Positions 15,510 to 58,725 of a stretch of 64,000 bases of DNA are shown here, piece after piece. A program made the position numbers and the translations under genes. The number at the start of each line of letters is the position of its first letter. Positions within the stretch are counted from its first letter, which is position 1. The notes under the pieces were generated by a model. That model saw only the letters and a list, made by a program, of their open reading frames with translations. It had not been told where the DNA came from and searched no databases. Origin of the DNA: an uncultured Clostridia bacterium (GTDB lineage: Bacteria; Bacillota; Clostridia; TANB77; CAG-508); contig CAKOVX010000006.1 in the NCBI GenBank assembly GCA_934122155.1, forward strand, positions 23 through 64,022, in the 5' to 3' direction.

Positions 15510-15527
15510 ACATTAACTACTAAGTTT

Positions 15528-15568
15528 AAATCTAGTCATTTCAACAAATGACTAGATTTTTTTTATTT
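15528..15568 (+). terminator. rho-independent terminator (ATCTAGTCAT/ATGACTAGAT + T8)
   Basis: Perfect 10-bp stem followed by a T-run after the kinase gene. Confidence 0.7.
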
Positions 15569-15662
15569 TATTTTTTTAATAAATACTGTACAATTCGACA
15601 AACTATGATATAATGTTGTTGTCATCTTGAGTATACTTACTATAAATATTGAGGTGAAAAGT

Positions 15663-30600: not shown

Positions 30601-30935
30601 ATTCGATACCTTTCCTTTCTATTGGTACAAATTTTGTTGAAATTATAGTAATTTTTCAACTTTTTACCTTCAGTACAAATTTAATTTTATCATATTTTTA
30701 TTAAAAAGTATAGACAAATTTCAAAATATATTATATGATTGTTAAAAATTGGAAGGTGGTGTTAATATATTAATTTAATTGATTATTTTTTCATTATCCT
30801 TATTATCAATAGTTTTATCTTTTTTTATTCATTATATAATTTTTTTGATATTAAAGTTTTTCATAATCTACAAGGTTCAAAATTAAAATTAAAAAATCCC
30901 ACTAATTTTAAATAATTATTTTTAAGGAGGTGTTT

Positions 30936-32655
30936 ATGAATTAAACGAGTTTTATTCATTTTATTTTTTACGCTTATTTTTTGTTTTATTGGTTATAAAA
31001 TATTTTCTCCTATTTATTTTCAAAGCCACATTATTATTGATTATGGTTTACACCCTTTTGATATTTGTATAGAGCAACCTGTTTTATGGAAATATTTAAA
31101 AATATTATTTTTAATTACTTATATTTATTCTGGAATATTTTTTTCTAATTTATTATCTAATGTATTTCATTTGAAAAATAAATCAAAAATAAATAAAAAA
31201 AACAAATTAAATAAAAATAATTATTCTTTAATAAATTCAAATAAAAAATGTGAATTAAAATTATTAGTTGGAGAAAATGTAAATACCAAAGAAATTATTT
31301 ATTTACCTGAAAAAAGTTTATACCAAAATATTTTAATTACCGGAACTATTGGTACTGGAAAAACCAGCAGTGCTATGTACCCATTTACTAAACAATTAAT
31401 TAAATATGAAAATTATAATAATGATAAAAAATTAGGTATGTTGATTTTAGATGTTAAAGGAAATTATTATCGAAAAGTTATAGAATTTGCAGATGAATTT
31501 AATAGGCATGACGATATTATTGTTGTTGAATTAAATGGCAAATATAAATATAATCCTTTGCACAAGCCAAACTTGAAGCCATCTATTCTTGCTAACAGAT
31601 TAAAAACAATTTTATTACTTTTTTCAAAAAATAATTCTGAGAGTTATTGGTTAGATAAATCAGCTCAAATTTTAGAAGAATGTATTAAACTGTGTAGGCT
31701 CTATAACAATAATTATGTTACATTTGATGAGTTACATAAATTAATTACTAATGATAATTATTATTTAGAAAAATTAAATTATTTGCGTGATAATTTTATT
31801 AAAAACATTTTTTCTGAGAGTCAAATTTATGATTTATATTCTAGTTTAAATTTTTTCGAAAAAGAATATTTGAATTTAGATCAAAGAACTATGTCCATTT
31901 TAAAATCTGAAATTACCAGAATTACTAATTGTTTTATTTCTGATTATGATGTTTTAAATACTTTTAACCCTAAACAAGAAGAACTTAATTTTTTTGGTTT
32001 TGAAGAAGTATTAAAAAAAGGAAAAATTGTAGTATTAAATATGAATATAAATGAATATTCAAATTTATCAAAAATAATTGCAGCATATTTAAAATTAGAT
32101 TTTCAAACAGATGTAATGACTAGGCTTGCCAACAGTAAAGACAATAATTTTAGGAGTGTTTGTTTTATTTCTGATGAATATTCTGAATATTGCACAGAAA
32201 CTGACTGTAATTTTTTTTCGCAAAGTAGAGAAGCAAAATGTATAAATATTGTTGCCACACAAAGTTATACTTCTTTATTAAATACTCTTCATGATCAATC
32301 TGCAGTAAATGTTATTATTCAAAATTTAATAAATAAATTATGGTTTAGAAGTGATGACATTTTTACAATTGAAAATGCACAAAAACAAATTGGAAAAGAA
32401 GACAAAGAAAAAATATCAAGAGGAATCTCAGAAAATGCTAAAGAAACTGTTTATAGTTATTTTACTAATTCTTTAAATTCTAAAAATTCTAATATTTCGG
32501 AAACCATTACCACAACTCTTCAAAATGATTTTGTTTATGATACCAATTTTTTTACCAGACATTTGACTAATTTTCACTGTTTAGGTTTTTTATCAACTGG
32601 TACTGAAATTATTCCACCATCTGAATTAAAATTATTTCCATATTTTAATAATTAA
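30936..32655 (+). CDS. type IV secretion coupling protein (VirD4/TraG/TrwB-like ATPase); its 5' end has a 1-nt frameshift or an ATT start
   Basis: SD AAGGAGG followed by ATG-AAT-TAA; from ATT at 30940 an unbroken frame encodes two N-terminal TM helices (VLFILFFTLIFCFIGY; YLKILFLITYIYSGIFF), then Walker A 'GTIGTGKTSS', 'ILDVKGNYY' and 'FISDEYSEY'. Confidence 0.7.
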
Positions 32656-32677
32656 TATTTTTTAGGAGGTTTTATTT

Positions 32678-33022
32678 ATGTTTAAATTTATTTATAAAAA
32701 AAGATTTTTATTTATCTTATTATTTATTTTATTTTTATTTATTCTTTCTTCAGACACATATGCTAATTTTTTTAATGGCAACCCAGAAATTGTAGATAAA
32801 TTAAATTCTGCTTTTGAAAAAATTGAAAGTTGGATGTTAAAATTAGCAACTCCCGCGGCTGCTGTGGCTGTTGCCGTTGGATTATTTATGAAAAAATTTA
32901 GCTTTGGTGATGAAGAAAGACTAAGAGTTGCAAAAAAATTAATTAGAGGCAGTTTATTTTCTTATGCTTTTATTTTAGTTTTAGACCTAATTTTATCTGC
33001 AATTAGTTCTTTATTAACTTAA
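32678..33022 (+). CDS. VirB2/TrbC-like T4SS pilin candidate
   Basis: Signal peptide (...SSDTYA) then two hydrophobic helices separated by a short charged loop (LATPAAAVAVAVGLFM ... LFSYAFILVLDLILSAI). Confidence 0.55.
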   Translation: MFKFIYKKRFLFILLFILFLFILSSDTYANFFNGNPEIVDKLNSAFEKIESWMLKLATPAAAVAVAVGLFMKKFSFGDEERLRVAKKLIRGSLFSYAFILVLDLILSAISSLLT

Positions 33023-33037
33023 TTTGGTGGTGATGTT

Positions 33038-33916
33038 TTGGAAACTTCTAATTTAACAACTTCAATTATTGAAACAATTAATTCTATTTTTGAAACTTTA
33101 TTTTCTTCTATTGATACTACAATTTATTCTGTTTTGGATGAACTAACTTTTATTAATAAAGATATTTTAAATAATTCTATATTTCAAAAAATATTTGATT
33201 CTAATAGTTATAATGGTTTATTAGTAATTGCAAATTCTTTATTAGTTGGATTTTCTCTTTATTATGCCATCCGTTTAATTTATTCTTATTATATGAATTT
33301 ACAAATTGAAAGACCTTATCAATTTATTCTTAAATTATTAATTTTTGGAATTGTAATGAATTGTTCTTATTTTATTTGTAATCAATTTATTCAAATAAAT
33401 AGTTTTATTTCTGATGCAATTCGTACAGTTGGTTTAAATATTTTTGGACATGATATATCTTTTTCTGAATTAATAAATAAATTAAATTATATTTCAATTA
33501 AAGAAAATGAATTTAATATTTTTTCTTTTGATGGGTTAATAAAAAGTTTTATTTCTATTAGTTTATTTAATTTAATCTTTTCATATTCTTTAAGATATAT
33601 AATGGTAAAAGTATTTATTTTAATTACTCCTTTTGCAATATTAAGCTTGATAAATGAATCTACCTCTTGGTTTTTCAAAACTTGGCTTAGAACAATTTTA
33701 TCTTTATTATTTCAACAATCTTTAGTTGCAATTATATTATTAATTATTTTTTCTTTTAATTTTTCTTCAAATAATATTATTTCTCAATTAATGTGTATTG
33801 GTGGAATATATGCACTGGTGCGTGCTAATTCATATATTAGAAGTTTAATTGGTGGTATTTCAACAGATGTTTCAAATAATTTTAATATTGGCAGCAAATT
33901 TTTAAAAAATATTTAA
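33038..33916 (+). CDS. VirB6/TrbL-like polytopic membrane protein
   Basis: 292 aa with at least 5 TM helices, directly downstream of the pilin-like gene; TTG start. Confidence 0.5.
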   Translation: METSNLTTSIIETINSIFETLFSSIDTTIYSVLDELTFINKDILNNSIFQKIFDSNSYNGLLVIANSLLVGFSLYYAIRLIYSYYMNLQIERPYQFILKLLIFGIVMNCSYFICNQFIQINSFISDAIRTVGLNIFGHDISFSELINKLNYISIKENEFNIFSFDGLIKSFISISLFNLIFSYSLRYIMVKVFILITPFAILSLINESTSWFFKTWLRTILSLLFQQSLVAIILLIIFSFNFSSNNIISQLMCIGGIYALVRANSYIRSLIGGISTDVSNNFNIGSKFLKNI

Positions 33917-33930
33917 AAGGAGTTTTATTT

Positions 33931-34212
33931 ATGAAATTTATTTTTCCACAAAATTATAATTTTAAAAATAAATTATTTGGAATAATTGATTATTCAAGTT
34001 TAATTTTTAATATTCTTTGGAATTTAATTGTCTTTTTATTAGTTAATTTATTATTTAAAAACAATAATATCAAAATATTTATTTTTATTATTTTTTCTTT
34101 GCCTATTTTTTTATTTACTATTTTGGGATTTAATCATGAAAATATTTTAAGTGTTTTCATGTATTTAATTAAATATATAAAAAGACCCAAAATATATTTT
34201 TATTCAAAATAA
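33931..34212 (+). CDS. VirB3/PrgI-like small two-TM protein
   Basis: 93 aa with two hydrophobic helices, in the T4SS gene neighbourhood. Confidence 0.45.
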   Translation: MKFIFPQNYNFKNKLFGIIDYSSLIFNILWNLIVFLLVNLLFKNNNIKIFIFIIFSLPIFLFTILGFNHENILSVFMYLIKYIKRPKIYFYSK

Positions 34213-34291
34213 CTTTTTCCTCATAAGTTTATTGTAAATCAAATAGAAAAATGATATAATTTGACAAAACATAACATTGGGGGAGTTTTTT

Positions 34292-35260
34292 ATGAAGTTA
34301 GAGCAAAATGATTTATTACCTTTGTTTTCAAGTACTAGTCTTCCAGATATATTTTTTACAGAATATTTACCTGAAGCAAATGGTGATTATCTTAAAGTCT
34401 ATTTGTATATTTTATTTTTGTCAAAATATGATAAAGATATTAAATTAAATGATTTAAGTAAAAAATTAAATCTTTCTTTTAAGGTAATTCAAGATGCAAT
34501 GAAATATTGGGAAGACCAAAATGTTATTGTTAAGAAAAATACAGGTTATGCTTTTAATAATTTACAAGAAATAGAATTAAATAACTTATATAAGCCTAGA
34601 GTTGCTTTGTCAGCTGAACAAGTACAAAAATCAGCTGAAAGTCAAAAGCGTGCTAAAACTATGGAATATATAAATAATAGATATTTTTCTGGTTTAATGC
34701 CAACTACTTGGTACCCTGATATAGAATTATGGTTTAAAAAATATGGTTTTGATGATGAAGTTATGATGGCATTATTTAATCATTGCTTTGACAAATCTGC
34801 ATTACACAAAAATTATATTCAAACAGTTGCAGATGCCTGGGCAAAAAATTCAATTAAAACATATAATGATCTAGATTTATATTTTGAAAAGCAAGAAGCT
34901 GTTAATAAAATTGCTAATATGGTTATTAAAAAATTGGGCCTTGGCAGACAACTTTCTCAATATGAATATGCTTATGTTGAAAAATGGATAGTTGATTTTA
35001 AATTTAATTTTGATATTATTGAAATTGCTTTAAAAAGAACTACATCAAAAGTAAATCCAAGTTTTGATTATATAGATAAATTATTAACTGATTGGCATGA
35101 TAGAGGTTTTACTTCTGCTGAACAAGTTCAGAAGTTTTTATTAGATATGAAACAAAAAAATAAGGATATTAAAACTTTAGAAAAATCAACAAAAAATTAT
35201 CAAAATTACAATCAGAGAAATTATGATAACTTAAATAGTCTATATGCTAATAAATTATAG
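34292..35260 (+). CDS. DnaD-domain replication initiation/membrane attachment protein (phage/plasmid type)
   Basis: DnaD/DnaB_2-like C-terminal region 'YVEKWIVDFKFNFDIIEIALKRT'; TTGTAA-16-TATAAT promoter at 34233-34260; ATG follows SD GGGGGAG. Confidence 0.75.
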   Translation: MKLEQNDLLPLFSSTSLPDIFFTEYLPEANGDYLKVYLYILFLSKYDKDIKLNDLSKKLNLSFKVIQDAMKYWEDQNVIVKKNTGYAFNNLQEIELNNLYKPRVALSAEQVQKSAESQKRAKTMEYINNRYFSGLMPTTWYPDIELWFKKYGFDDEVMMALFNHCFDKSALHKNYIQTVADAWAKNSIKTYNDLDLYFEKQEAVNKIANMVIKKLGLGRQLSQYEYAYVEKWIVDFKFNFDIIEIALKRTTSKVNPSFDYIDKLLTDWHDRGFTSAEQVQKFLLDMKQKNKDIKTLEKSTKNYQNYNQRNYDNLNSLYANKL

Positions 35261-35269
35261 GAGGTTGTT

Positions 35270-36262
35270 TTGAATAATTCTACTTTAAAATCTCTTTTAA
35301 TTGAATATGATAAAAAAAGAAGAAATGCTGAAAATATTGCCCAAAAAGAAAAAGAAAATTTATATGCGGAATTTCCAGAACTTGATGAAATAGATAAAAA
35401 GTTAAGTTCTTTGGCATTTTCTTCAATGATAGAATTAACTAAAAATAATGATAAAAAAATAATAGAAAATTTGAATTCTAATATTGAATTATTAAAAAAG
35501 AAAAAAGAAGATATATTAAATTCTATTGGAGAAAAAGCAAAAAAAATAATTCCAAATTATGAATGTAAAAAATGTAATGATACTGGATATATTTTTGATG
35601 GAAATTCCACAGAAATGTGTAGTTGTTTAAAACAAAAAATTTATGATATCGAATATAATAAATCAAATATTTCTAATTTAGAAAAACAAAATTTTAATAG
35701 TTTTAATTTAGCTTTTTATTCTGATGAAGTAAATAAACAAAAATATAATTCAGACATCTCACCTAGAGAAAATATTAAAATAATTAAAAATATTTGTGAT
35801 AATTTTATTAATAATTTTGATAATCCTGAACAACATAATTTATTATTTACAGGCAACACTGGTCTAGGAAAAACATTTTTATCTAGCTGTATCGCAAATG
35901 AATTATTAAAAAAAGGGAAAACTGTATTATACCAAACATCTTCAGTTATGCTTGATACAATTATTAATTATCGTTTTGGTAAATCAAATGTTTCTAAGGA
36001 TATATATGATTATTTATTAAATGTAGATTTACTTATTATTGATGATTTAGGAACTGAAGGAATAAACAACATGAAATTAGTTGAATTATTTAATATTTTA
36101 AATAGTAGACTTTTAACCCCAAATAAAAAAACTATTATTTCTACTAATTTAAGTTTGCAAAATTTATTTAATACTTATGATGAAAGAATTGTTTCAAGAA
36201 TTGTGGGAAATTATGATATATGTTACTTTTTCGGAGATGATATTCGTTTTAAAAATAAATAA
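35270..36262 (+). CDS. DnaC/DnaI-like helicase loader (IstB-like AAA+ ATPase) with N-terminal Cys4 zinc motif
   Basis: 'CKKCNDTGYI...MCSC'; Walker A 'GNTGLGKTFL'; Walker B 'LLIIDDLGTE'; TTG start after SD AGGAGG. Confidence 0.8.
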   Translation: MNNSTLKSLLIEYDKKRRNAENIAQKEKENLYAEFPELDEIDKKLSSLAFSSMIELTKNNDKKIIENLNSNIELLKKKKEDILNSIGEKAKKIIPNYECKKCNDTGYIFDGNSTEMCSCLKQKIYDIEYNKSNISNLEKQNFNSFNLAFYSDEVNKQKYNSDISPRENIKIIKNICDNFINNFDNPEQHNLLFTGNTGLGKTFLSSCIANELLKKGKTVLYQTSSVMLDTIINYRFGKSNVSKDIYDYLLNVDLLIIDDLGTEGINNMKLVELFNILNSRLLTPNKKTIISTNLSLQNLFNTYDERIVSRIVGNYDICYFFGDDIRFKNK

Positions 36263-36294
36263 AAAGATATTTCTTTTCAGAAATATCTTTTTTG
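36261..36294. terminator. bidirectional terminator (AAAGATATTTCT/AGAAATATCTTT)
   Basis: Hairpin with flanking A/T runs between the convergent DnaC-like gene and the 88-aa gene. Confidence 0.6.
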
Positions 36295-36298
36295 TTTT

Positions 36299-36565
36299 TT
36301 ATCTTTCTTCCCCAGCATTTTTTTCTTTTTCTCTCTTACTTTGTTCTTTTCTTGCATCTAATATATTTATTTCGTCCATTATAAGTTGGTGCATATTTTT
36401 TAAACCTTTGAAACGTTCTGGCAATTTGCTTTCAAATTTCCTGATGTCTTCTTCTATAAGCTCTTTTTCTTTTGGAAATTGCCCTTCTCTAGTTGTAGTA
36501 ATCTTATCATATAATTCATATTCAACAATAAGTAATAGCTGGGAAATTATTTTATCTTCATCCAT
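36299..36565 (-). CDS. hypothetical charged coiled-coil protein, probably co-transcribed with gyrA (3-nt gap)
   Basis: 88-aa ORF starting 3 nt after the gyrA stop. Confidence 0.6.
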   Translation of the reverse strand: MDEDKIISQLLLIVEYELYDKITTTREGQFPKEKELIEEDIRKFESKLPERFKGLKNMHQLIMDEINILDARKEQSKREKEKNAGEER

Positions 36566-36568
36566 TTT

Positions 36569-39025
36569 TTATTCTCCTTCATTTTCATCTGGAGCTATCG
36601 TTTCAATGCTAACAACCTTTCCTTCATTTGTTCTCATTAATGTTACACCTTGAGTAGATCTACCTAAGATACTAATATCTTTAACTTTTAATCTAATAAT
36701 AGTACCGTTATCTGTAATTAACATTACATCTTCATCATCTGTTGCAATACGTATACCAACTAAGCTTCCTGTTTTTGGTGTTATCTTATATGTTGTAACA
36801 CCTTTTCCACCTCTAGTTTGTACTCTATATTCATCTAATTCTGTTCTTTTTCCAAATCCATTTTCAGTAATTGCAAGTAATGTTGCATTTTTATTGCCTT
36901 CAATTATAGATTCCATTCCAATAACATAATCTTCACTATCTAGCCTAATACCTATAACACCTTGTGCTGTTCTTCCCATTGGTCTAACATCTTTTTCACT
37001 AAATGTTATACAAGAACCTTGGCTAGTAACTAATACTACATTATCTTGACCATCTGTTAATCTAACATCTATTAACTCATCATCTTCTCTTAATGTAATA
37101 GAAAGAAGTCCTGTTTTTCTAGTTGAATCAAATTCAGTTAGTGGAGTCTTTTTAATAAATCCTTGTTTTGTTCCCATTAACAAATATTTTCCATCTGCAA
37201 AATTACTAATTGGAATAACTGCTGATATTTTTTCTCCTGGGTCTAACCTTAATAAATTAACTATTGCAGTACCTTTTGCAGTTCTTCCTGCTTCTGGTAT
37301 TTCATACCCTCTTAATCTATATAATTTTCCTTTATTACTAAAGAATAATAGGGTATCATGAGTTGAAGCTGTAAATATTTGTTTAACAAAATCTTCTTCT
37401 CTTGTAGCTAATCCTGTAATTCCTTTGCCTCCACGTTTTTGGCTTTTATATGTATCTATTGGCATTCTTTTTACATATCCAAAATGTGTTAAAGTAATTA
37501 CTGTTTGTTCTTCTTTTACTAAATCTTCAATATTAATTTCGCCTTCTGCTGCAACGATTTTAGTTTTTCTTTCATCACCATATTTTTGTTTAATTTCTAA
37601 TAATTCTTCTTTAATAATATCAAATACTAATTTTTCACTTGCTAAAACAGCTCTTAAGTGTTCAATTAATTTCATTAATTCATTATATTCTTCATCTATT
37701 TTTTCTCTTTGCAATCCTGATAAAGTTTTTAATCTCATATCCAAAATAGCTTGTGCTTGAATATCTGATAAATTAAATCTTTCCATTAATCTTTCTTTTG
37801 GGTCATCATATGAACTACGAATAATATTTATTACTTCATCAATATTATCTAATGCAATTCTTAATCCTTCTAATATATGTGCTCTAGCTAATGCCTTATC
37901 TAAGTCAAATTGAGTTCTACGAAGAATAACTACTTTTCTGTGGTCAATATAGTAATCTAAGCATTGTCTTAGTGTTAAAACTTTTGGTTCTCCATTAACT
38001 AATGCAAGCATTATAACACCGAATGTATCTTGTAATTGTGTATGTTTATATAATTGATTTAATATAACTTGTGCATTTACATCTCTTTTTAATTCAATTA
38101 CAATTCTTACTTTTGATTCTCTATCAGATTCATCTCTAATTTCTGATATTCCTTCAATTCTTTTATCTTTTACTAATTCTGCAATGTTTTCAATTAATTT
38201 TGCTTTATTTACCTGATATGGAAGTGAATTTACAATAATTCTTTGCTTATTATTACTCATCTCTTCAATTTCACTTTCACCACGAACAGTAATTTTTCCT
38301 CTACCTGTTGTATATGCTTGTTTTATTCCCTCTATTCCTAAAATAAGTCCTTCTGTTGGAAAATCAGGTCCTTTTATAATCTCCATTAATTGCTCATCAG
38401 TAACATCATCTTCATCAATTATTTTTATAATCCCATCAATTACTTCTGTTAGGTTATGTGGTGGAATATTTGTTGCCATACCTACTGCAATTCCTGAAGA
38501 ACCATTTATTAATAAAGCTGGTATTTTGGCTGGAAGTACGGTTGGTTCTTGTAAACGATCATCATAGTTTGGCATAAAATCAACTGTATTTTTTTCAATA
38601 TCAGTAAGCATTGTTTCTGCTATTTTTGCCATTCTTGCTTCTGTATACCTCATTGCTGCTGCACCATCACCATCAATTGAACCAAAGTTTCCATGTCCAT
38701 CAATTAATGTATATCTTTGTGTAAAATCTTGAGCTAATCTTACCATTGCATCATATACTGAAGCATCTCCATGTGGATGGTATCTACCTAAAACAGAACC
38801 TACTGTATTAGCACATTTTCTGTAAGGCTTGTCTGATGTGATTCCATCCTCATACATAGCGTATAAAATTCTTCTATGTACAGGTTTTAAACCATCTCTT
38901 ACATCTGGAAGAGCTCTCGATACAATAACACTCATAGCATAATCAATATATGCTGTACGCATCTCTTTTTCAATATCGCGTTCTACTATTTTTCCGTCAT
39001 TTCTTTTTTCGTCGTTTGCTTCCAT
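36569..39025 (-). CDS. gyrA: DNA gyrase subunit A
   Basis: 818 aa; 'AMSVIVSRALPDVRDGLKPVHRR' and active-site Tyr region; C-terminal beta-pinwheel repeats. Confidence 0.97.
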   Translation of the reverse strand: MEANDEKRNDGKIVERDIEKEMRTAYIDYAMSVIVSRALPDVRDGLKPVHRRILYAMYEDGITSDKPYRKCANTVGSVLGRYHPHGDASVYDAMVRLAQDFTQRYTLIDGHGNFGSIDGDGAAAMRYTEARMAKIAETMLTDIEKNTVDFMPNYDDRLQEPTVLPAKIPALLINGSSGIAVGMATNIPPHNLTEVIDGIIKIIDEDDVTDEQLMEIIKGPDFPTEGLILGIEGIKQAYTTGRGKITVRGESEIEEMSNNKQRIIVNSLPYQVNKAKLIENIAELVKDKRIEGISEIRDESDRESKVRIVIELKRDVNAQVILNQLYKHTQLQDTFGVIMLALVNGEPKVLTLRQCLDYYIDHRKVVILRRTQFDLDKALARAHILEGLRIALDNIDEVINIIRSSYDDPKERLMERFNLSDIQAQAILDMRLKTLSGLQREKIDEEYNELMKLIEHLRAVLASEKLVFDIIKEELLEIKQKYGDERKTKIVAAEGEINIEDLVKEEQTVITLTHFGYVKRMPIDTYKSQKRGGKGITGLATREEDFVKQIFTASTHDTLLFFSNKGKLYRLRGYEIPEAGRTAKGTAIVNLLRLDPGEKISAVIPISNFADGKYLLMGTKQGFIKKTPLTEFDSTRKTGLLSITLREDDELIDVRLTDGQDNVVLVTSQGSCITFSEKDVRPMGRTAQGVIGIRLDSEDYVIGMESIIEGNKNATLLAITENGFGKRTELDEYRVQTRGGKGVTTYKITPKTGSLVGIRIATDDEDVMLITDNGTIIRLKVKDISILGRSTQGVTLMRTNEGKVVSIETIAPDENEGE

Positions 39026-39060
39026 TATTTTACCTCTTTTCTAGTATTTTTCACTCCTTT

Positions 39061-39089
39061 ATTATACTAAAACACTATAAAATTTGCAA
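39061..39089 (-). promoter_or_regulatory. sigma-A promoter of gyrA (TTGCAA-17 nt-TATAAT)
   Basis: Near-consensus -35/-10 with 17-nt spacer about 35 nt upstream of the gyrA ATG. Confidence 0.6.
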
Positions 39090-39092
39090 GTA

Positions 39093-39128
39093 AAAAATCG
39101 TGATTTTATGGCTTAAATCACGATTTTT
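39093..39128 (-). terminator. rho-independent terminator (AAATCGTGATTT/AAATCACGATTT) closing the island-2 operon
   Basis: Perfect 12-bp stem followed by a T-run. Confidence 0.6.
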
Positions 39129-39301
39129 TTATACTATTTAATTAAAATTTCAGCAAGCTTTTTTTGCTCTTCTGTTAAATTAAAATCATGCCCATTATTT
39201 TTTATAATTAGGTGTAAATTTTCTATTTGTCTTGCTTGTTTCAATGTTTCTTCTAATGGTAAAGTTTGTTTTAATCTATCTCTTATTTTTTCATATTCCC
39301 T

Positions 39302-39859
39302 TTACATTCCATCAAAATCTTGATTCTGATAATAATTTTTCCAATTATTTTCATACTTCCCTAATTTTTCTATATTATCTAACTGATTAGCAAATTCTGT
39401 CTCAATATTACTACTAACATTATCCAAAATAACATTTTTCCCTTGTCTAATTAAACTTCCAATACTTGATGGAATTAAGCCCTTTTTTACTGTATAACTT
39501 AAGGCTTTATCTAAAGTATCAGAAATACCATCAATTATTCCTCCATTTTTTACTGCATTTTGTGCCTGCGAAACACTTTCAAATTTTCCAGTAAATATTC
39601 CAGTTATACTTTTACCTAATTCAATCCCCTTTTCCACAGTTGCACTTATTCCTTCTTTTAGTCCTCCTTTTATTAAACTGTTTTTTATATCTATAACTTG
39701 ATTTTCAACAAAATCTGGTAATACCCACCTTAGTCCTAAATCAATTGCTGTATTTATTACTTTTCCCATTGTTGTATTTAAAAATCCACTTTGCTCTTTT
39801 TCTGTTACTAATTCATTATTATTTAATTGATTATTATTTAATATTAATTCTTTTTCCAT
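39302..39859 (-). CDS. hypothetical protein (185 aa); in-frame ORF continues 55 codons past its TAA stop
   Basis: Canonical SD + ATG; Gly/Ile-rich; frame stays open after the TAA (39134..39301). Confidence 0.6.
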   Translation of the reverse strand: MEKELILNNNQLNNNELVTEKEQSGFLNTTMGKVINTAIDLGLRWVLPDFVENQVIDIKNSLIKGGLKEGISATVEKGIELGKSITGIFTGKFESVSQAQNAVKNGGIIDGISDTLDKALSYTVKKGLIPSSIGSLIRQGKNVILDNVSSNIETEFANQLDNIEKLGKYENNWKNYYQNQDFDGM

Positions 39860-39875
39860 ATTAAATTTCTCCTTT

Positions 39876-41093
39876 TTAGGTTTTTAACAAATTATTATTT
39901 ATTTTTAAATATTCTTTTTTTAAATTTTTATTTAATTTATTTATATTATTTTTATTTATAATTAAATTGTATTTTGGGTTAAAAGATAATTTTCCTAATA
40001 TATTAAATCCAGAAAAAACTTTTTTGAGAATAGAAATATCTATTGAATTTTCATTATATTTATTAAATAAAATATTTATATTTTTTTGAGGTATTTCCCA
40101 ATTATTTATATAAATATCTAATAATTTTTTTGCTTTTTTTATTTCTAATAAATTAGCTTCTAAAATAAAAATATCTAAATTACTATTTTTTATTATTTCT
40201 TTTGTATAATCAAAAAAACATTCTGAAGAAGTGTCTATAATAATTACATCATATTTTTCTTTTAATTTTAATAAAATATTTTTTACTTTTTCACTACTAA
40301 TTTTGTACTTAGAATCAAATAATAAATTTATTCCTGATATTAAATCCATTTTTGAATTTACTTTAATTATCAATTCTTCTATTTTTATTTCCTTTAATAA
40401 ATTATTATTTTTTATTTTATTTTGTATTTTTTGAGAATATTTTTTAATTCCTAATATTGTATGCAAACTATTATTTAAAACATCAAAATCAATAATTAAT
40501 ATTTTATTTTTATTATTTAATAATGAATTTGCTAAATTAATTGTACATATACTTTTTCCTACACCATTTGTTCCTGTAATGCTAATTATTTTATTTTCTT
40601 TTAAATCACTATCTTGTTTTTTATTAAAAATATTTATTAATTTTTTTAAATATACTTTTTTATTATTTATTTTATTATTTTGTTTTTCTAATAACATTTG
40701 TTTTATTTCTTTCAATTCATTATTTATTTCCATATTTTTATTATTATTTATTATTTTAATTATTTCTTCAATTTCAATTTGATTATTATAAAAAATATTA
40801 TAAATTCCTTTGGCATATAAATAATTTTCTAATTCTATATTTTTATTTTCTAAAAATAAAATTATTTCAATACTTGAATTTATATTTTTTATTTTTTCTA
40901 TTAATTTTTTTATTTCAATATTTCCCGGTAATAATTCACTAATAATTAAAAAGTCAATATTATTTTCTTTTTCTAAATATTCTAATATTCCTTCTTTATA
41001 TTGTATATCTTCTATTATTACTTCAAAATTATTTTGCTTTTTTAATTTTTCATTTAATATTTCATTTCCTATTGCAGTAATTATTTTTTTCAT
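39876..41093 (-). CDS. ParA/MinD-superfamily ATPase with N-terminal receiver-like domain (TadZ/CpaE-like)
   Basis: 'ISITGTNGVGKSICTINLANSL' deviant Walker A; N-terminal about 120 aa resembles a REC fold; ATG overlaps the upstream stop (ATGA). Confidence 0.7.
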   Translation of the reverse strand: MKKIITAIGNEILNEKLKKQNNFEVIIEDIQYKEGILEYLEKENNIDFLIISELLPGNIEIKKLIEKIKNINSSIEIILFLENKNIELENYLYAKGIYNIFYNNQIEIEEIIKIINNNKNMEINNELKEIKQMLLEKQNNKINNKKVYLKKLINIFNKKQDSDLKENKIISITGTNGVGKSICTINLANSLLNNKNKILIIDFDVLNNSLHTILGIKKYSQKIQNKIKNNNLLKEIKIEELIIKVNSKMDLISGINLLFDSKYKISSEKVKNILLKLKEKYDVIIIDTSSECFFDYTKEIIKNSNLDIFILEANLLEIKKAKKLLDIYINNWEIPQKNINILFNKYNENSIDISILKKVFSGFNILGKLSFNPKYNLIINKNNINKLNKNLKKEYLKINNNLLKT

Positions 41094-42949
41094 AATAAGT
41101 TCCTTTCTTTATTAGGTTCAATTATCTCTTTTTCAAAATCAGCAGCTTCAATTTTTGTTAAAATATGTTCTGCTCCAATAAACATTAAACATTCTCCTCT
41201 TTTTAATGATTTTATTTCTATTTTTTCTTTTTCTGATAAATTTGTATATTTTTCTAATACTTTTATATTTTCTTCTTCTAAAGCAAAAAATGTTTTTATT
41301 TCTGAATTATTTAAAATACTTTTTCCATATGTACCATCTTCTAAGCTAAATAGGTCTGAAATATCTTGAGTTATTGCAACTGCACTTCCTCCATATTTTC
41401 TAATTGTTTTAAATATTTTATATATAAAGCTTGCTACTTCTTTATTAGAAGTTACTCCAATTAACCTCCATATTTCATCCATATAAATTGCTTTATTTTT
41501 ATTTCGATCTTTTTTTATTTTATTCCAAAATAATTCAATAAAAATAAACATACCATATTTTAAATTGTCTTCTCCTAATTCATAAATATCTGCAACAATT
41601 AAAGGATTATTCAAATTTACATTAGTATAATTATTAAAAAATTTTAGTGAGCCTTTTACAAATGGAATTAATTTTATTTGGAATTTTTTTGTTTTTTCAT
41701 CTTGTCCTAATAAATTATAAAAATCTTCTAAAATTGGCATATCATATGTTGTTTTAAAAATTGGTTTAATTATTATTTTATTTTCTTCTTTTTTATATAA
41801 TGTTTCATCATCAAATGTAATCTGTTTATTTTTATATAATTCAATTATTTTTTCTTCTAATATTGCTTTTTCTTCTTCAGTTAAATTACCAAAAATTAAA
41901 TTAAAAAATCCAATTAATTTACCTAATTTATTTGCTAAATATCCCTGCTCATTATCTTCTAAACTTTCTTCCATAATATCAAATACATTTATATATGAAT
42001 TAGAATTTGGTCCTATTTTTAAAAGTGAACCTTCTAATTTTTCACACATATTTCCATATTCTCTATCTGGATCTATAATATATTGTTCTATTCCTAATAA
42101 TCTATTTCTTAAAACTAATAATTTTGTATAAAATGATTTTCCTGCACCACTGGTTCCAAAAATACATATATTTGAATTTTTATATTTATTTTTATTATAT
42201 CTATCAATAAATACTAAAGAATTATTATAAATATTAGTCCCAATAAAAATACCTTCTTCATCAAATATCGCAGAAGAAATAAATGGATATGTTGCAACTA
42301 AACCACTTGTTAATACATTTCTTTTGGCTGCATTTTTTAAATCTATTGAATTTTCCATAAGAGGTAATGCTGTTAAATAAGCTTGTTCTTGTCTAAAATA
42401 TGCTCTTCTTGTTTGCATTCCTTTACTTTGTATAATACCTTCTAATTTATTTAATAAATATTCTAATTCTTTTATATCATTCGAAAATGTTGTTACATAA
42501 ATATATAAAAAATATAATTCTTCGTTATTTATTTGCATTTCTTTTCTAATATATTTTGCATCATTATATGTAAATGCTGCGATATCTATATCTTGTCTAT
42601 TTTGATTTCCTTCTTTTAAATCAACTCCTACATTTCCAATATGATATGTTAAATCTCTTATTGTTTTATATGTATCCTGTTTTTCATAAAAAATAGAAAT
42701 ATCTAAATTTATATTTGTATCAATAATTGATTTTAATATTAAATCTGTTTGTTCTCTAAAATAATTTGTAATAATTAATGTAGAATAATAAATATTATCG
42801 ATTTCAATAAATTTTGGATTTGAAATATTTATATAAGATGGACTTAAATAATCTTTGTTTGAAAAAGAGCCCTGAAAAAATAATTTATTTTCTTTTTTAT
42901 TTATTTTATTTAAAAAATTATTATTTATTTTATTTAATATTTTTTGAAT
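41090..42949 (-). CDS. VirB4/TraC-family conjugative T4SS ATPase (about 619 aa if initiated at ATT)
   Basis: 'NICIFGTSGAGKSF', 'IIDPDREYG', 'IYMDEIWRL'; the frame stays open 137 codons upstream of the first ATG back to SD AGAGGTG-5 nt-ATT; the N-terminal extension looks like the VirB4 N-domain. Confidence 0.75.
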   Translation of the reverse strand: MQKILNKINNNFLNKINKKENKLFFQGSFSNKDYLSPSYINISNPKFIEIDNIYYSTLIITNYFREQTDLILKSIIDTNINLDISIFYEKQDTYKTIRDLTYHIGNVGVDLKEGNQNRQDIDIAAFTYNDAKYIRKEMQINNEELYFLYIYVTTFSNDIKELEYLLNKLEGIIQSKGMQTRRAYFRQEQAYLTALPLMENSIDLKNAAKRNVLTSGLVATYPFISSAIFDEEGIFIGTNIYNNSLVFIDRYNKNKYKNSNICIFGTSGAGKSFYTKLLVLRNRLLGIEQYIIDPDREYGNMCEKLEGSLLKIGPNSNSYINVFDIMEESLEDNEQGYLANKLGKLIGFFNLIFGNLTEEEKAILEEKIIELYKNKQITFDDETLYKKEENKIIIKPIFKTTYDMPILEDFYNLLGQDEKTKKFQIKLIPFVKGSLKFFNNYTNVNLNNPLIVADIYELGEDNLKYGMFIFIELFWNKIKKDRNKNKAIYMDEIWRLIGVTSNKEVASFIYKIFKTIRKYGGSAVAITQDISDLFSLEDGTYGKSILNNSEIKTFFALEEENIKVLEKYTNLSEKEKIEIKSLKRGECLMFIGAEHILTKIEAADFEKEIIEPNKERNLL

Positions 42950-43468
42950 ATTATCACCTCTTTTTTATTTTTAATTAAAAAATATTATATAATAATTAAT
43001 TTTTTTATATTATTATAAATTATTATATATTGTCTTTTTGTTCAATATATATTAGTTCTATCTTTTTCTGTTAGTTCTATTTTTTGTTTTTTATTCTATC
43101 ATTTTAAAATTTTGATTTTACACTAAAACTTTATAATTTTGTGCATTTTTTATTTTGTCAAATTAGCATTTTTAGAATGTATAATTACATTTTTTTATTT
43201 CACAGCTGTATTAAAATTGTTCATCTATATCTATTATTTGTTTTTATGTATACCATCCGATTTGTTTCTGAATTTTATGTTTTAAAACATTTTTCCTTTA
43301 TTCCCCAGTGTTTTATTGGTTGTTTTTGTGTGGTTTTATATTCATTTTTTATTATTTTTCTAATTTCAATTTGTACTATTTCTTTATTGTTTTCCATACT
43401 TAACTTTTTTATCCAATTTTATAGTTGTCATTTTGTTACTAAATTTGTTCTAAATACATTCTTGTGTC

Positions 43469-44008
43469 TAAAAATGAAAAAAGTACATTAACAATATCTT
43501 TTTGGTTGTGTATTTCTTCAACCATATTTCCACACCTAGATAAACACTCCTTTATTTTAAAATATTCATCTGTTAGCTTTTCTGTCAAATATTCATTATT
43601 GTTTAATATTTCTTTGTTATTATTCTTACATTTTAGTATAATATAAAAGTTTTTGGATGATGATTTTTTTTCTTGATTTATTTTTTTTATATATTGGATA
43701 TATTTTTTAGATATTTGTTGAATAAAAATTTTTTCTTGACTTAAATTTTTTTGTATATTATTAATATGTTTTGATAAATCTTCTTTATTACTTTGAATTA
43801 ATATTTGAAAATTAAAATTACATGTTTTTAAAAAAATTTTATATGAATTTAATATTGCTTCTTTTTCTAGTTCTGATTTTAAATTAAAATTTATTGGATT
43901 TATTTTTATTATTTTTATATAACTGTTATTTTTTAATTTAATAATTCCATTATCTAATATACACTGAATTGGAAGCCATTCTTGAACAGTATTTATTTTT
44001 TTTATTAT
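43469..44008 (-). CDS. hypothetical 179-codon ORF with perfect SD but no ATG/GTG/TTG (putative ATA start)
   Basis: AAGGAGGTG-7 nt-ATA ATA AAA...; open frame to TAG at 43469; absent from the ORF track for lack of a canonical start. Confidence 0.4.
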
Positions 44009-44621
44009 TAAATTACACCTCCTTTTATAAAAATTATTAATAATATTTTGGAATGTTTTAAGAAATAATAAATATTTTGAAAAAATAAAATAATTAAAAA
44101 TTTATATATTTATATTAACTTTTTTTATTATAATTGTCAATAAAAATCATATGCCAAAATTCGACAATATTTTTTTGAATAATAAAATTTTTTTTGGACA
44201 TATTAATAATGTAAGGTTAATATTAGTTGAACTAAGAGTTTTATGAGGTCGATTTTAGGCTTTTTGAAATTCGAGCAAAAATTAATTATTGTTTAATTAT
44301 TTTAGATGATAATTAGTTGGAGATGAGAGTATATTATTTGTATTTAAGCTGTATTAAATTTTATTTTTGTTAATTTAATGAAGGTAGCATTTGTTATATA
44401 TGGTTGAAAATATAGGTAATATATTCGAAGTTAAGATTATTATTGTATATTTTAATGATTATTATTAGTCCTTATAGGATGAATTTAGTTATTATGTGTG
44501 CATTATTAGTCGAGCAACTGATTTATATATTTGGTGCATAGTTTATTTGTATAGTAATATACATTAGATTAAAAATTAGGTATATAGGTTTTAGCTGTAA
44601 ATTAATATTAGCTTTACTGAT

Positions 44622-44657
44622 GAAAAAATAGCGAGGTAACTATCCTCGCTATTTTTC
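44622..44657 (-). terminator. rho-independent terminator after gyrB (AGCGAGG/CCTCGCT)
   Basis: GC hairpin with a T-run immediately 3' of the gyrB stop. Confidence 0.65.
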
Positions 44658-44658
44658 A

Positions 44659-46593
<1,935 letters not shown>

Positions 46594-49163: not shown

Positions 49164-50489
49164 TTAATTAGAAAATAAAGAGTTTTTCACAGTTTCCACA
49201 ATTAATTTTGTATTAGTATTTTCTTTAAGTTCATTTGCTATTTTATTACATCCATGCATTACTGTTGAATGATCTCTTTTACCAAAAGCTAGTCCTATTT
49301 TAGGAGTAGAAATATTAGCAATATCTCTACAAAAATACATAGCTATTTGCCTTGGATAAGTAATATCAGCAGACCTTCTAGATCCTTTTAAATCATCAAC
49401 TGTAATATTAAAATATTTAGCAACAACTTCTTGAATGTATTCAATTGAAAGTACTTTATTATGATGTGAAACTACATCAGATATAGCTTTATTAGAAAGT
49501 TCTATTGTAATAGGACTATTAGATAATGTTGAATAAGCAATTAATTTATTTAATGCTCCCTCCAACTCCCTAATATTTGTGTTAATATTAGTAGCTATAT
49601 TTACTAAAACATCATCATCAATAATAATATTATCCAATTGAGCTTTCTTTTTTAATATTGCCATACGAGTTTCATAATCAGGGTTAGAGATATCAGCTAT
49701 AAGTCCCCATTCAAAACGAGTTCTCAAACGTTCTTCTAAAGGTTGAATATCTTTTGGAGGCCTATCACTGGAAATAATAATTTGTTTTCCATTATCATGT
49801 AAAGTATTAAATGTATGAAAAAATTCTTCTTGAATTCTTTCTTTTCCAGCAATAAACTGAATGTCATCTATTAATAAAACATCAATATTACGATATTTGT
49901 TACGAAACATTTCGTTTTTATTGTCTTTTATTGCATTTATAAATTGGTTTGTGAACTTTTCAGAACTAACATATAAAATATTTGCGGTTTTATTGTTTTT
50001 TAATATTTCATTTCCAATGGCATGCATTAAATGGGTTTTTCCAAGTCCAACACCACCATATAAAAATAAAGGGTTATATGCAGTAGCAGGAGCCTCAGCA
50101 ACAGCCAATGCTGCAGCATGCGCAAAAGAGTTATTACTACCAACAACAAAACTATTAAAAGTATATTTTGGATTTAAGTTAGATGTACTAACATAGTTTT
50201 CTGATGACATTGCTACTTCATTTTTCCTATCAATATCTTCTTCTGAAACTACTTTTACGTCATAGTTTTTATGAGTTATAAAACTAAAAGTATTTTTTAA
50301 TAAAGATAAATACCTAGACTCTAACATATCTTTATGTACAATGTTTTGTGCAATTAGAGTAATAGTACTATCATCAACTGACAAAATTTCAATGTTGTTA
50401 ATCCATGTACTATATGAAATATCAGTTACTTCAGTTTTTAGTAGTTCTTTTGCTTTTGTGTTTAGTTCATTTATTTCGGCCTTTTGCAT
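49164..50489 (-). CDS. dnaA: chromosomal replication initiator protein DnaA
   Basis: 441 aa; AAA+ 'LFLYGGVGLGKTHL'; C-terminal HTH 'DHSTVMHG'. Confidence 0.97.
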   Translation of the reverse strand: MQKAEINELNTKAKELLKTEVTDISYSTWINNIEILSVDDSTITLIAQNIVHKDMLESRYLSLLKNTFSFITHKNYDVKVVSEEDIDRKNEVAMSSENYVSTSNLNPKYTFNSFVVGSNNSFAHAAALAVAEAPATAYNPLFLYGGVGLGKTHLMHAIGNEILKNNKTANILYVSSEKFTNQFINAIKDNKNEMFRNKYRNIDVLLIDDIQFIAGKERIQEEFFHTFNTLHDNGKQIIISSDRPPKDIQPLEERLRTRFEWGLIADISNPDYETRMAILKKKAQLDNIIIDDDVLVNIATNINTNIRELEGALNKLIAYSTLSNSPITIELSNKAISDVVSHHNKVLSIEYIQEVVAKYFNITVDDLKGSRRSADITYPRQIAMYFCRDIANISTPKIGLAFGKRDHSTVMHGCNKIANELKENTNTKLIVETVKNSLFSN

Positions 50490-53440: not shown

Positions 53441-54821
53441 ATGAGTACAATTGCTGCAATTTCAACAGCTCCAGCTAATGGAGGAATTGGAATTATTAGA
53501 ATGAGTGGAAAGAATTGCTTTGAAATACTAGATAAAATTTTTGTACCAAAACAAAAGCAAAATATAGAAGAAATATCTGGATACACCATAAAATATGGGT
53601 ATATTATAGATTTTAAAACAAAACAAAAAATAGATGAGGTTTTAGTATCATTTTTTAAAGCACCTAAAAGCTATACTACTGAGAATATGTGTGAAATAAA
53701 TTCACATGGGGGAGTGGTAATTGAACAAAAAATATTAGAACAATGTTTATTAGCAGGAGCTGAAATGGCTGAGCCTGGAGAGCTTACTAAAAGAGCATTT
53801 TTAAATGGCAGGATAGATTTATCACAAGCTGAAGGAATTATTGACTTAATAAATGCTAAAACTTCTCAAGAAGCAAAAGCATCATTTAAACAATTAGAAG
53901 GAAGCCTGTCTAAAAAGATTCAAGATATACGTCAGAATTTATTAAGCATAATGTCTGACATTGAGGCGTCTATTGATTATCCTGAATATGATGAAGTGCC
54001 TGAAATAGTAAATAAAAGGCTGATTGAACAAATAGATGCAATTGAAGATAAATTACTTAAATTAGAAAAAAGTTTTGACAGTGGAAGGGTACTAAAAGAA
54101 GGAATAAAAACAGTTATATTAGGAAAACCAAATGCAGGAAAGTCATCTTTATTAAATGCTATTTTAAACGAGGAAAGAGCAATAGTAAGTCAAATAGAGG
54201 GGACAACTAGAGATACTATTGAAGAAATGGTGCAGATTCAGGGAATACCTTTAAAATTAATAGATACAGCAGGCATAAGAAACACTCAAGATGAGATTGA
54301 AAAAATTGGCGTTAAAAAGGCTCTAGAGCTGTCAAACGAAGCTGACCTAATAATAGGTATATTTGACAACACAAAACGGCTTAGAAGCCGAAGATTTGCG
54401 AATACTGGATATTCTCAAAAATAAGAACTCAATTGTATTATTAAATAAGATTGATGAAAATGCAAATGGATTAGAAAATGATATTAACATTAAAAATGTT
54501 AATAAACCGGTTATAAAAATATCTGCTAAAACAAAAGAAGGATTAGAAGAATTATATGAACAAATTCTGAAGATGTTTAAATTAAATGAAATTGAAATAA
54601 ATGATGGGGAAGTAATAACAAATATAAGACATAAAAACCAAATTAGAAAGACTATTGAAGCCTTAGAACAAGCTAAAGATGGACTAAAAATAGAAATGCC
54701 AATTGATGTAGTGGCTGTTTCTTTAAAAGAAGCATTAGAAGATTTGAGTGAGATAACAGGAGAAAACGTATCAGAAGATATAATAAATAATATATTCTCT
54801 AAGTTTTGCTTAGGAAAATGA
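53441..54821 (+). pseudogene. mnmE: tRNA modification GTPase MnmE with an apparent +1 frameshift near 54375 (two overlapping ORFs, 327 + 152 aa)
   Basis: N-terminal domain and G1 '[10 protein letters not shown]' sit in frame 2; '[26 protein letters not shown]...' to the C-terminal 'CLGK' sit in frame 0; the frame changes at 'acaaaaCggctta'. Confidence 0.8.
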
Positions 54822-56969: not shown

Positions 56970-56991
56970 TCAAATAAAAAAGAGAGGAACA

Positions 56992-58706: not shown

Positions 58707-58725
58707 AAGAAAAGGAGATGTTATA

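Follow-up and report, generated by a model that had tools for sequence, protein, structure and literature searches.

Patescibacteria carry chromosomal, relaxase-less type IV secretion systems (T4SSs) derived from the MPF_FATA class and composed of TrsD, VirB4, VirB3, VirB6, and VirB2-like pilins, which are often encoded near dnaA/dnaN and which Southlakia epibionticum cannot do without when growing as an epibiont (PMC12102498, PMC10633639). VirB2 pilins are otherwise unknown in Gram-positive T4SSs, and the T4SSs of Patescibacteria have been regarded as unique among those of monoderms in their potential to form a conjugative pilus (December 2025 review, PMC12857230). Here, we describe a T4SS gene set in a 64,000-nt stretch (contig CAKOVX010000006.1, hereafter the window) from an uncultured gut Clostridia bacterium, in which two modules lie on either side of gyrA, close to the replication origin. 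We consider it likely that a monoderm T4SS has been domesticated here: fixed on the chromosome and passed on vertically, it would descend from an ancient conjugative element, would no longer be mobile, and would serve as a machine for cell–cell interaction.

Judged by gene content and position, Patescibacteria have the most similar system, a T4SS with pilins that is encoded near the origin and lacks a relaxase. Like that system (Quinonero-Coronel 2025, PMC12102498; Wang 2023, PMC10633639), the Clostridia locus is chromosomal, vertically inherited, origin-proximal, and without a relaxase nearby, combines a monoderm TrsD-like protein with VirB4, putative VirB3/PrgI- and VirB6-like proteins, and a VirB2-like pilin (PF04956/PF18895), and resides in a small-genome, hard-to-culture host. 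The differences concern the host, a Clostridia lineage; the coupling protein, which is adjacent and strongly conserved here, whereas in the candidate phyla radiation it is usually distant and is non-essential in strain ML1; the pilin, encoded by a single gene instead of an array; and the inclusion of a TadZ-like ATPase and a lineage-specific orphan in a set divided into two modules around gyrA.

Homologous VirB4, coupling, VirB6-like, and VirB3-like proteins relate the locus to conjugative MPF_FATA T4SSs (pGO1/pSK41 TrsD-TrsE and CTn2/CD1110-type VirB4), with the detached TrsD-like N-domain recalling the pGO1 subclass; it differs from those systems in its fixed chromosomal position and in the lack of a relaxase, of MobC, and of a peptidoglycan hydrolase in the window. 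The 405-aa ATPase shares the receiver-like plus MinD/ParA architecture of TadZ/CpaE, but the window locus lacks the TadA, TadB/C, CpaB, and Flp-type pilin of a Tad/Flp pilus, TadA/platform-like genes being present beside the ATPase homologue in two distant relatives (L094 and L097; related loci are designated by L numbers). Helicobacter pylori ComB and the gonococcal genetic island (GGI) of Neisseria are chromosomal T4SSs for DNA uptake or release in diderms, with outer-membrane core parts; GGI has a relaxase and ParA/ParB-like proteins, and ComB is not known to have a coupling protein. Compared by description only, the Clostridia locus would resemble them as a chromosomal T4SS not used for self-transfer. 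The archaeal Ced and Ted systems are domesticated T4SSs with VirB2, VirB6, and VirB4, accompanied in Ted loci by a ParA/VirC1-like gene (Beltran 2023, PMC9905601). By gene content, the resemblance to Ced/Ted extends to chromosomal domesticated conjugation machinery with VirB2/VirB6/VirB4-like proteins, a ParA-like gene, and no relaxase; the coupling protein and the VirB3-like protein set the Clostridia locus apart, since no VirD4-type protein figures among the Ced/Ted core components in the available text of their description, and Ced is an importer of DNA (PMC9905601). No description came to light when the literature was searched for TANB77 or CAG-508 together with T4SS or VirB4, and in the TANB77 study of Kim 2024 (PMC11680825) the conserved, TANB77-specific Tad pilus cluster is a separate 12-gene locus and a T4SS is not mentioned in the text. 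What appears new here, from the gene content, is a Patescibacteria-like exapted T4SS in Clostridia, with the coupling protein and a TadZ-like ATPase retained and the set split around gyrA.

Gene content and conservation of the two modules

The window has a GC content of ~27% and uses the standard bacterial code; Mollicute code 4 was considered and dropped, gyrA and gyrB being open throughout in table 11. The host lineage consists of uncultured gut Clostridia with low GC and genomes of ~1.5 Mb (1.57 Mb in one closed genome). The genes dnaA (49164-50489), dnaN, recF, and gyrB (44659-46590) succeed one another on the minus strand, and cumulative GC skew is lowest at 50-51 kb, which puts oriC at ~50.5-50.9 kb, 6-20 kb from the T4SS locus. 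The features of the two modules are as follows:

30940..32655, plus strand: type IV coupling protein (VirD4/TraG-like; D4), 571 aa (TrwB_AAD_bind, transmembrane segments, Walker A)
32678..33022, plus strand: VirB2/TrbC-like T4SS pilin, 114 aa (Pfam on the family, topology)
33038..33916, plus strand: VirB6/TrbL-like polytopic membrane protein (B6), 292 aa (sub-threshold TrbL, topology, homologues)
33931..34212, plus strand: VirB3/PrgI-like small membrane protein (B3) with two transmembrane segments, 93 aa (sub-threshold PrgI, homologues)
39134..39859, minus strand: lineage-specific orphan, predicted all-helical, 241 aa in relatives (open reading frame (ORF) and homologue comparison)
39876..41093, minus strand: TadZ/CpaE-like ATPase, 405 aa, 13% GC (AAA_31, CbiA, ParA)
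41090..42949, minus strand: VirB4 ATPase, middle and C-terminal domains, 619 aa (P-loop_TraG, CD1110 model, PDB 4AG5)
42950..43438, no strand: AT-rich spacer between the two VirB4 genes, ~490 nt (alignment with relatives)
43439..44008, minus strand: detached VirB4 N-terminal domain gene (N-domain; TrsD/TraD/TraC-like), 189 aa (NCBIfam, Pfam on homologues)

The T4SS set is vertically inherited and under purifying selection across many species. Database searches with the VirB4 ATPase yielded 5,674 homologues, of which the 120 best are full length and share at least 77% identity with it, and a relative is encoded in 462 GTDB species-representative genomes. A scan of one genome per GTDB species yielded 80 loci that were kept for synteny analysis. 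The order dnaA-dnaN-recF-gyrB-N-domain-VirB4-TadZ-like-orphan-gyrA is colinear in all 48 loci reaching both gyrase genes, and gyrA is followed by the inverted DnaI-DnaD-B3-B6-pilin-D4 block in 33 of 34 loci, the exception being L039, where DnaD-DnaI is flipped; the association with gyrA is retained at VirB4 identities of 47-51% (L092 and L094). Distances between T4SS proteins track those of gyrB and gyrA (Mantel r 0.75-0.88, p=0.001) about as tightly as do those of recF and dnaA (r = 0.85-0.86), and VirB4 diverges less than either recF or dnaA. Against close species, the ratio of nonsynonymous to synonymous substitution rates (dN/dS) of the T4SS genes is 0.03-0.45 in nearly every comparison, with the 93-codon B3 gene as an outlier (0.84 against L031), and their dS resembles that of neighboring genes. 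The Walker A motifs of the window ATPases are intact.

The calls of a VirD4-like and a VirB4-like ATPase, made earlier by a reading of the sequence without database searches (the sequence-only reading), reach curated thresholds, as do its DnaD/DnaC-like calls. D4 matches Pfam TrwB_AAD_bind with 44.8-45.6 bits (cut-off 20.5) and TraG-D_C with 20 bits, and displays two N-terminal hydrophobic, transmembrane segments and the Walker A motif GTIGTGKT. Its start codon is ATT, 9 nt past GGAGG, and is kept in all 6 related loci that reach the 5' end. Gene callers relying on ATG or TTG yield only 494 aa; the ATT start at 30940, giving 571 aa, restores both transmembrane segments. In four species, an out-of-frame ATG-AAT-TAA mini-ORF overlaps the ATT.

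The next gene encodes a single-copy protein with the layout of a T4SS pilin, in which a signal peptide precedes two hydrophobic helices joined by a charged loop. Alone, the window protein remains below threshold (TrbC, 22.7 bits, E=1.2e-4; T4SS_pilin, 16.3 bits, E=0.01), and it is the family that bears out the VirB2-like assignment: T4SS_pilin (PF18895) is matched by 25 of 25 members (best E=3e-6) and TrbC (PF04956) by 11 of 25. The mature part of the pilin is nearly invariant between species. An AlphaFold2 model from the single sequence is a helix-loop-helix with a predicted local distance difference test (pLDDT) score of 69, for which a Foldseek search of the PDB returned only meaningless helical matches (E>=2); a homologue is encoded in the relaxase-bearing element L096 (E=2e-9).

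For the VirB6- and VirB3-like calls of the same reading, profile scores fall below the curated thresholds, and support comes from topology, from gene position, and from the presence of homologues next to VirB4 in a conjugative element. The VirB6-like protein has at least 4 hydrophobic segments and homologues in L096 and L097; TrbL is matched at E=0.003 by the window protein and by 7 of 27 family members (best 1.8e-4), and the sole PDB match of the family profile is TrwI, the VirB6 of R388 (E=0.44). PrgI is matched at E=0.047 by the VirB3-like protein and by 5 of 31 members (best 0.0066), and a VirB3-like homologue immediately precedes VirB4 both in L096 (E=2e-9) and in L097 (E=4e-12).

In the second module, the VirB4 ATPase matches P-loop_TraG with 77-79 bits (cut-off 25.8) and AAA_10 with 53 bits, has the Walker A motif GTSGAGKS, and aligns with VirB4 of PDB 4AG5 (E=1e-48). 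The NCBIfam model of CD1110-type VirB4 is matched at its positions 183-730 of 752 (E=5e-89); the score, 299.5 bits, lies just below the cut-off of 325 because the VirB4 N-domain is a separate gene. The ATPase gene starts with ATT at 42949 (ATG-based callers yield 482 aa), and relatives of 580-640 aa have ATG at the equivalent position. The N-domain gene is one of two proteins of this module that had been classed as unknowns. It has a probable ATA start at 44008, 9 nt past GGAGG, was left uncalled in the source assembly, and matches the N-terminal parts of NCBIfam VirB4 models (E=5e-10 to 7e-8) and TrsD over its full length (E=2.4e-5, well below the model cut-off); its homologues match Pfam TraC-like, and it is a separate gene in 71 of 71 loci with a near-full-length copy. 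The spacer between the two VirB4 genes has a median of 49 nt in relatives versus ~490 nt in the immediate clade of the window, where it aligns at ~50-55% identity and is unconserved but for the 13-nt motif GGTATACATAAAA at 43242-43254 (also L008, 9670-9682, and L012, 9775-9787), which contains the palindrome GTATAC.

The TadZ-like ATPase consists of an N-terminal receiver-like region and a MinD/ParA-type P-loop (GTNGVGKS); it matches AAA_31 (46 bits), CbiA, and ParA, as well as MinD, Soj, and BceF in the PDB, and among the matches listed in a homologue search all relatives are at least 87% identical. Its homologues lie downstream of VirB4 in L094, L096, and L097, adjoin T2SSE, T2SSF-like, or RcpC genes in the distant loci, and in L096 and L097 combine Response_reg (31.3 bits in L096) with CbiA/AAA_31, which makes the earlier description as TadZ/ParA-like with a pseudo-receiver domain a reasonable one. 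A canonical Soj/ParA-Spo0J/ParB pair is encoded at 57918-59589, on the opposite side of oriC; the T4SS-linked ATPase therefore appears to be an extra paralogue rather than the chromosome-partitioning ATPase.

The last member of the module, the second former unknown, remains an orphan, the best 120 of its 1,784 homologues having 237-263 aa and no Pfam domain. In the window, it is cut from 241 to 185 aa by TAA at 39302-39304, through a single G-to-T change at 39304; the allele is intact in a sister sample, and the lost C-terminal 55 aa are well conserved in homologues. An AlphaFold2 model from a 26-sequence alignment is all-helical, with a mean pLDDT of 46, too poor for a fold search.

Three genes of the set (D4, the VirB4 ATPase, and the N-domain gene) have no ATG, GTG, or TTG start, and automated surveys may therefore under-detect this T4SS: the gene finder used for the source assembly shortened two of them and missed the third. 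In several species (L008, L012, L026, L031, L035, L005, L052, L076, and L080), genes for the coupling protein or the N-domain likewise begin with ATT or ATA behind GGAGG.

Possible function, ancestry, and mobility

A domesticated machine of this composition could operate as follows. The VirB3-like and VirB6-like proteins and the two-part VirB4 would make up a translocon in the membrane, from which VirB4 would also extract the VirB2-like pilin for assembly into a short pilus or conduit, and the coupling ATPase, the conservation of which implies recruitment of a cytoplasmic substrate for export, would deliver a protein or nucleoprotein to it. The TadZ-like ATPase may position or scaffold the machine; TadZ and VirC1 position machines in their own systems. 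By analogy with what has been proposed for the T4SS of Patescibacteria, its role would be contact-dependent interaction with other cells rather than self-transfer, and with no relaxase in view, contact-dependent delivery of a protein or nucleoprotein to neighbors is favored. Proximity to the origin might confer a gene-dosage benefit, the ATT and ATA starts might keep translation of some components low, and DnaD and DnaI would be host replication genes merely sharing the neighborhood.

Several points weigh against this picture. That transport runs outward and not inward is presumed, as is the kind of substrate. The VirB6- and VirB3-like proteins score below the curated thresholds. No VirB8-like protein or VirB1-like hydrolase was found in either module by Pfam or NCBIfam, so that the channel may be incomplete or use unrecognized parts. 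The nonsense mutation in the orphan, together with the three genes devoid of ATG, GTG, or TTG starts, could signify local decay. Finally, a relaxase could be encoded elsewhere in the genome, the scope of the search being the 64 kb of the window and 10-kb flanks of related loci.

DNA import and chromosomal transfer with a relaxase acting in trans are the main rivals. In the first, which we regard as unlikely, the domesticated machine would be a competence-like DNA importer, as are archaeal Ced/Ted or Helicobacter ComB. No relaxase is encoded nearby, and reliance on nucleotides or DNA from outside would fit the small genome; ComB, however, is not known to have a coupling protein, whereas the coupling ATPase here is adjacent and constrained (dN/dS 0.05-0.14), as is typical of export of cytoplasmic substrates. 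Ced and Ted are domesticated VirB2, VirB6, and VirB4 sets with a ParA/VirC1-like gene in Ted, but the available text lists no coupling protein among their core components (PMC9905601). Furthermore, transformation of Saccharibacteria needs ComEC, and the essentiality of the T4SS is not attributable to ComEC (PMC10633639, PMC12857230).

The second rival, transfer of chromosomal DNA in the manner of high-frequency recombination (Hfr) strains or GGI-like release in Neisseria, with a relaxase encoded elsewhere, seems to us quite improbable. A coupling protein and a ParA-like ATPase occur together in DNA-secreting systems (GGI in Neisseria, VirC1), and the locus lies beside oriC and replication genes. 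Against it, Pfam detected no relaxase or MobC across the window or in the 10 kb around the locus in annotated relatives (L003, L005, and L092), and no candidate oriT was identified. The absence of a relaxase, hydrolase, or VirB8-like domain from the window had been recorded in the sequence-only reading and holds.

Distant relatives of VirB4, searched among 50%-identity representatives, comprise split VirB4s of ~600 aa at 44-53% identity, followed by ordinary 800-aa VirB4s at ~30-37%. In L092 and L093 (51%), the order dnaA-dnaN-recF-gyrB-...-N-domain-VirB4-...-orphan-gyrA is kept, with D4-pilin-B6-B3-DnaD on the strand of gyrA, opposite to the orientation in the window lineage, so that the D4 module must have been inverted in one of the lineages; a rearrangement, as suggested previously, did occur. 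In L094 (47%), VirB4, TadZ-like, T2SSE, and T2SSF-like genes lie directly upstream of gyrA, and L097 (53%) has a contiguous B6 - x - B3 - N-domain - VirB4 - TadZ-like - ... - T2SSE cluster. The split VirB4 followed by TadZ-like, T2SSE (TadA/VirB11-like), and T2SSF-like genes (L094, 10001-16119; L097, 262-11974) has the appearance of a T4SS-Tad hybrid gene cluster, of which we know no description. In turn, L096 (45% VirB4 identity) is a bona fide conjugative element with a relaxase and MobC, B3, a fused N-domain-VirB4, T4SS_pilin, a coupling protein, an M23 peptidase, B6, and a TadZ-like gene next to RcpC. This relaxase-bearing element contains a homologue of each T4SS part found in the window. 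The correspondence suggests that a conjugative element was domesticated long ago and upholds the conjugative ancestry that had been proposed. Plasmids are more remote: the best VirB4 in PLSDB is 34% identical (Vescimonas) and comes from another sub-family, one with sortase pili, and no PLSDB plasmid matches the pilin. From these comparisons, the simplest history would be that a deep ancestor acquired a relaxase-bearing element next to gyrA, that the genes for mobility and the hydrolase were then lost, and that the locus was rearranged locally at a later stage.

The AT-richness of the two islands, noted earlier, is real, with gene GC of 13-25% versus 25-32% in the flanking genes (by position, 0.19-0.24 at 31-36 kb, 0.13-0.24 at 39-45 kb, and 0.25-0.33 elsewhere), but does not serve as a sign of foreign origin. 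GC at third codon positions is at a floor of 5-17% in nearly all window genes and the deficit of the T4SS genes sits at codon positions 1 and 2, so that the low GC stems from amino-acid composition: N, K, I, F, and Y make up 43-62% of residues in most T4SS genes. The genes recF and DnaI are nearly as low. The AT-rich islands thus arise from strong AT pressure, under which the amino acids of membrane proteins or of less constrained proteins have drifted, and in genomes so AT-biased such islands are no evidence for horizontal transfer.

These data bear on the proposal that the locus is a decaying or rearranged integrative conjugative element (ICE) split by an inversion around gyrA, which we now consider very unlikely. 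In its favor are the conjugative ancestry of the T4SS genes, the absence of a detectable relaxase, VirB1, and VirB8, the nonsense mutation in the orphan and three non-canonical starts in the window strain, the opposite orientation of the first module in L092, and the very low GC. Against recent decay or rearrangement, the same set occupies the same position and order in the 80 species genomes, wherever the contig reaches, and in lineages at 47-51% VirB4 identity, a universal presence in the lineage of the kind that the proposal itself had named as contradicting it. Co-divergence with gyrase, dN/dS well below 1, and a GC deficit explained by amino-acid composition argue in the same direction. 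Among the features of an ICE, T4SS genes are present, and relaxase/oriT, integrase/att, and a patchy, incongruent distribution were not found; among those of a monoderm MPF_FATA-like T4SS, VirB4, the coupling protein, and a TrsD-like N-domain are present, the VirB6- and VirB3-like proteins are putative, and VirB8 and VirB1 were not found in the two modules. No integrase domain occurs near either module in the Pfam tables of the window or the annotated flanks of relatives, and when 29.9-44.8 kb was searched for att-like direct or inverted repeats, as had been proposed for the islands, all matches were AT-rich, of low complexity, and 70-89% identical. A tRNA cluster does precede the first module, as reported, but D4 starts 648 bp from tRNA-Lys, instead of ~350 bp, with a DUF1858 gene in between, and no att-like duplication was seen at the cluster. 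A phage origin was also considered and dropped; PHROGs gave generic ATPase and replication matches only.

It is still less probable that related ICEs inserted repeatedly, independently, and site-specifically between gyrB and gyrA in many species: the intergenic regions look like hotspots, with AbiEii, M78, and NUDIX cargo in L044 and an integrase-bearing insert in L093, but T4SS distances track gyrase as tightly as those of recF and dnaA, dS resembles that of the neighbors, and no recombinase or repeats were found flanking the T4SS modules. A functionless relic hitchhiking beside essential origin-proximal genes, to which the missing VirB1, VirB8, and relaxase, the 13% GC of the TadZ-like gene, and the strain-level nonsense mutation might point, is hardly credible given ORFs intact across 80 species, a VirB4 more conserved than dnaA or recF, dN/dS of 0.03-0.45, and a nearly invariant mature pilin.

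Neighboring genes and other features of the window

The genes and intergenic features interleaved with the two modules are listed below:

34277..35260, plus strand: DnaD/DnaB-like replication initiation protein with two DnaB_2 domains (DnaB_2 98.8 bits, TIGR01446)
35270..36262, plus strand: DnaC/DnaI-like helicase loader (NCBIfam PRK06835, 337.7 bits, cut-off 215; IstB_IS21, Bac_DnaA)
36569..39025, minus strand: gyrA, flanked by both T4SS modules (ORF, Pfam DNA_topoisoIV and DNA_gyraseA_C)
39061..39129, minus strand: hairpin with T-run 3' of the orphan, followed before gyrA by promoter-like TTGCAA-17-TATAAT at 39089-39061 (consensus match)
44009..44658, minus strand: gyrB-to-T4SS intergenic region (terminator-like hairpin of gyrB and promoter-like TTGACA-17-TAATAT at 44140-44112)
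44659..46590, minus strand: gyrB, preceded by recF, dnaN, and dnaA (gene order)

The replication pair had been read as part of the mobile element. Most likely, DnaD and DnaI are host replication genes and not T4SS cargo, given the equivalog-level NCBIfam match, the low dN/dS (0.03-0.08 for DnaD), and the independent inversion in L039, where the pair is inverted alone, apart from B3-B6. The DnaD-like gene adjoins B3 in the window lineage, and a DnaB_2 gene also lies 3' of B3 in L092. Gaps of only 9-64 nt separate the pair from the T4SS genes and from one another, and co-transcription with the T4SS genes is therefore possible. The block 30940-36262 (D4-pilin-B6-B3-DnaD-DnaI, plus strand), which includes essential replication genes, is oriented head-on to the skew-predicted replication fork and has a positive GC skew between negative flanks; in the deeper lineage L092, the same block is co-oriented with gyrA.

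The promoter-like sequence that had been assigned to gyrA is present at 39061-39089, but matches of this kind are no more common than in shuffled sequence (139 found versus 140.6 expected); promoter and terminator counts equal the shuffled expectation, and the scan is uninformative in such AT-rich DNA. A search of Rfam at a permissive threshold over 29.5-51.5 kb detected three tRNAs and nothing else. The gyrB-T4SS and post-gyrA intergenic regions range from 189 to 6,817 nt between species and in some contain unrelated cargo, including an AbiEii toxin, an M78 peptidase, NUDIX, and an M14 carboxypeptidase (L044, 2154-8989; L050; L011) and, in L093 (16500-21800), an integrase and a methyltransferase. 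These regions resemble hotspots of insertion next to T4SS genes whose position is fixed.

Elsewhere in the window, mnmE (trmE; 53441-54821) and rsmG (gidB; 56959-57718) each consist of two overlapping ORFs through a frameshift, the break in rsmG reading GGCTTTCCACGGAATACC where GFPGIP is expected. A Hadza sample and ERZ27287203, two metagenomes assembled independently, show the same splits, which leaves real pseudogenes or recoding, or else a shared systematic assembly error, as explanations. A 1,432-aa protein resembling nonribosomal peptide synthetases (condensation, AMP-binding, PP-binding, and reductase domains) is encoded at 9232-16715, next to a histidine kinase and an HD-domain response regulator, which is unusual for a genome of ~1.5 Mb. 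At 60047-63964, a 1,305-aa ORF (1,440 aa in another assembly) with BcrAD_BadFG and DUF2229 domains, a fused activase-like protein, extends to near the window end.

Implications for the host lineage

As a domesticated T4SS, the locus would be the second case of a VirB2 pilin in monoderm T4SSs, in Bacillota. With the coupling protein still attached and a clear mobile relative at hand, the route from a conjugative element to a host organelle becomes traceable. A broader proposition, which we advance only tentatively and consider doubtful, is that this Clostridia lineage, probably TANB77, possesses a core, near-housekeeping, pilus-bearing, relaxase-less T4SS, convergent with or related to that of Patescibacteria, and depends on contact-dependent exchange with partner cells; it would then be, as far as we found, the first Bacillota lineage outside Patescibacteria with a fixed T4SS of VirB2-type pilin. 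TANB77 has a low-GC, reduced genome and is uncultured, and its abundance predicts the response to immunotherapy (PMC11680825). The uncultured host lineage studied here, with its reduced genome, abounds in the guts of humans and animals and, if it is TANB77, would be of clinical interest (PMC11680825). In such organisms, a conserved surface machine is a candidate for interactions with other cells and a clue for cultivation, and dependence on partner cells, if true, could help explain why the lineage resists it.

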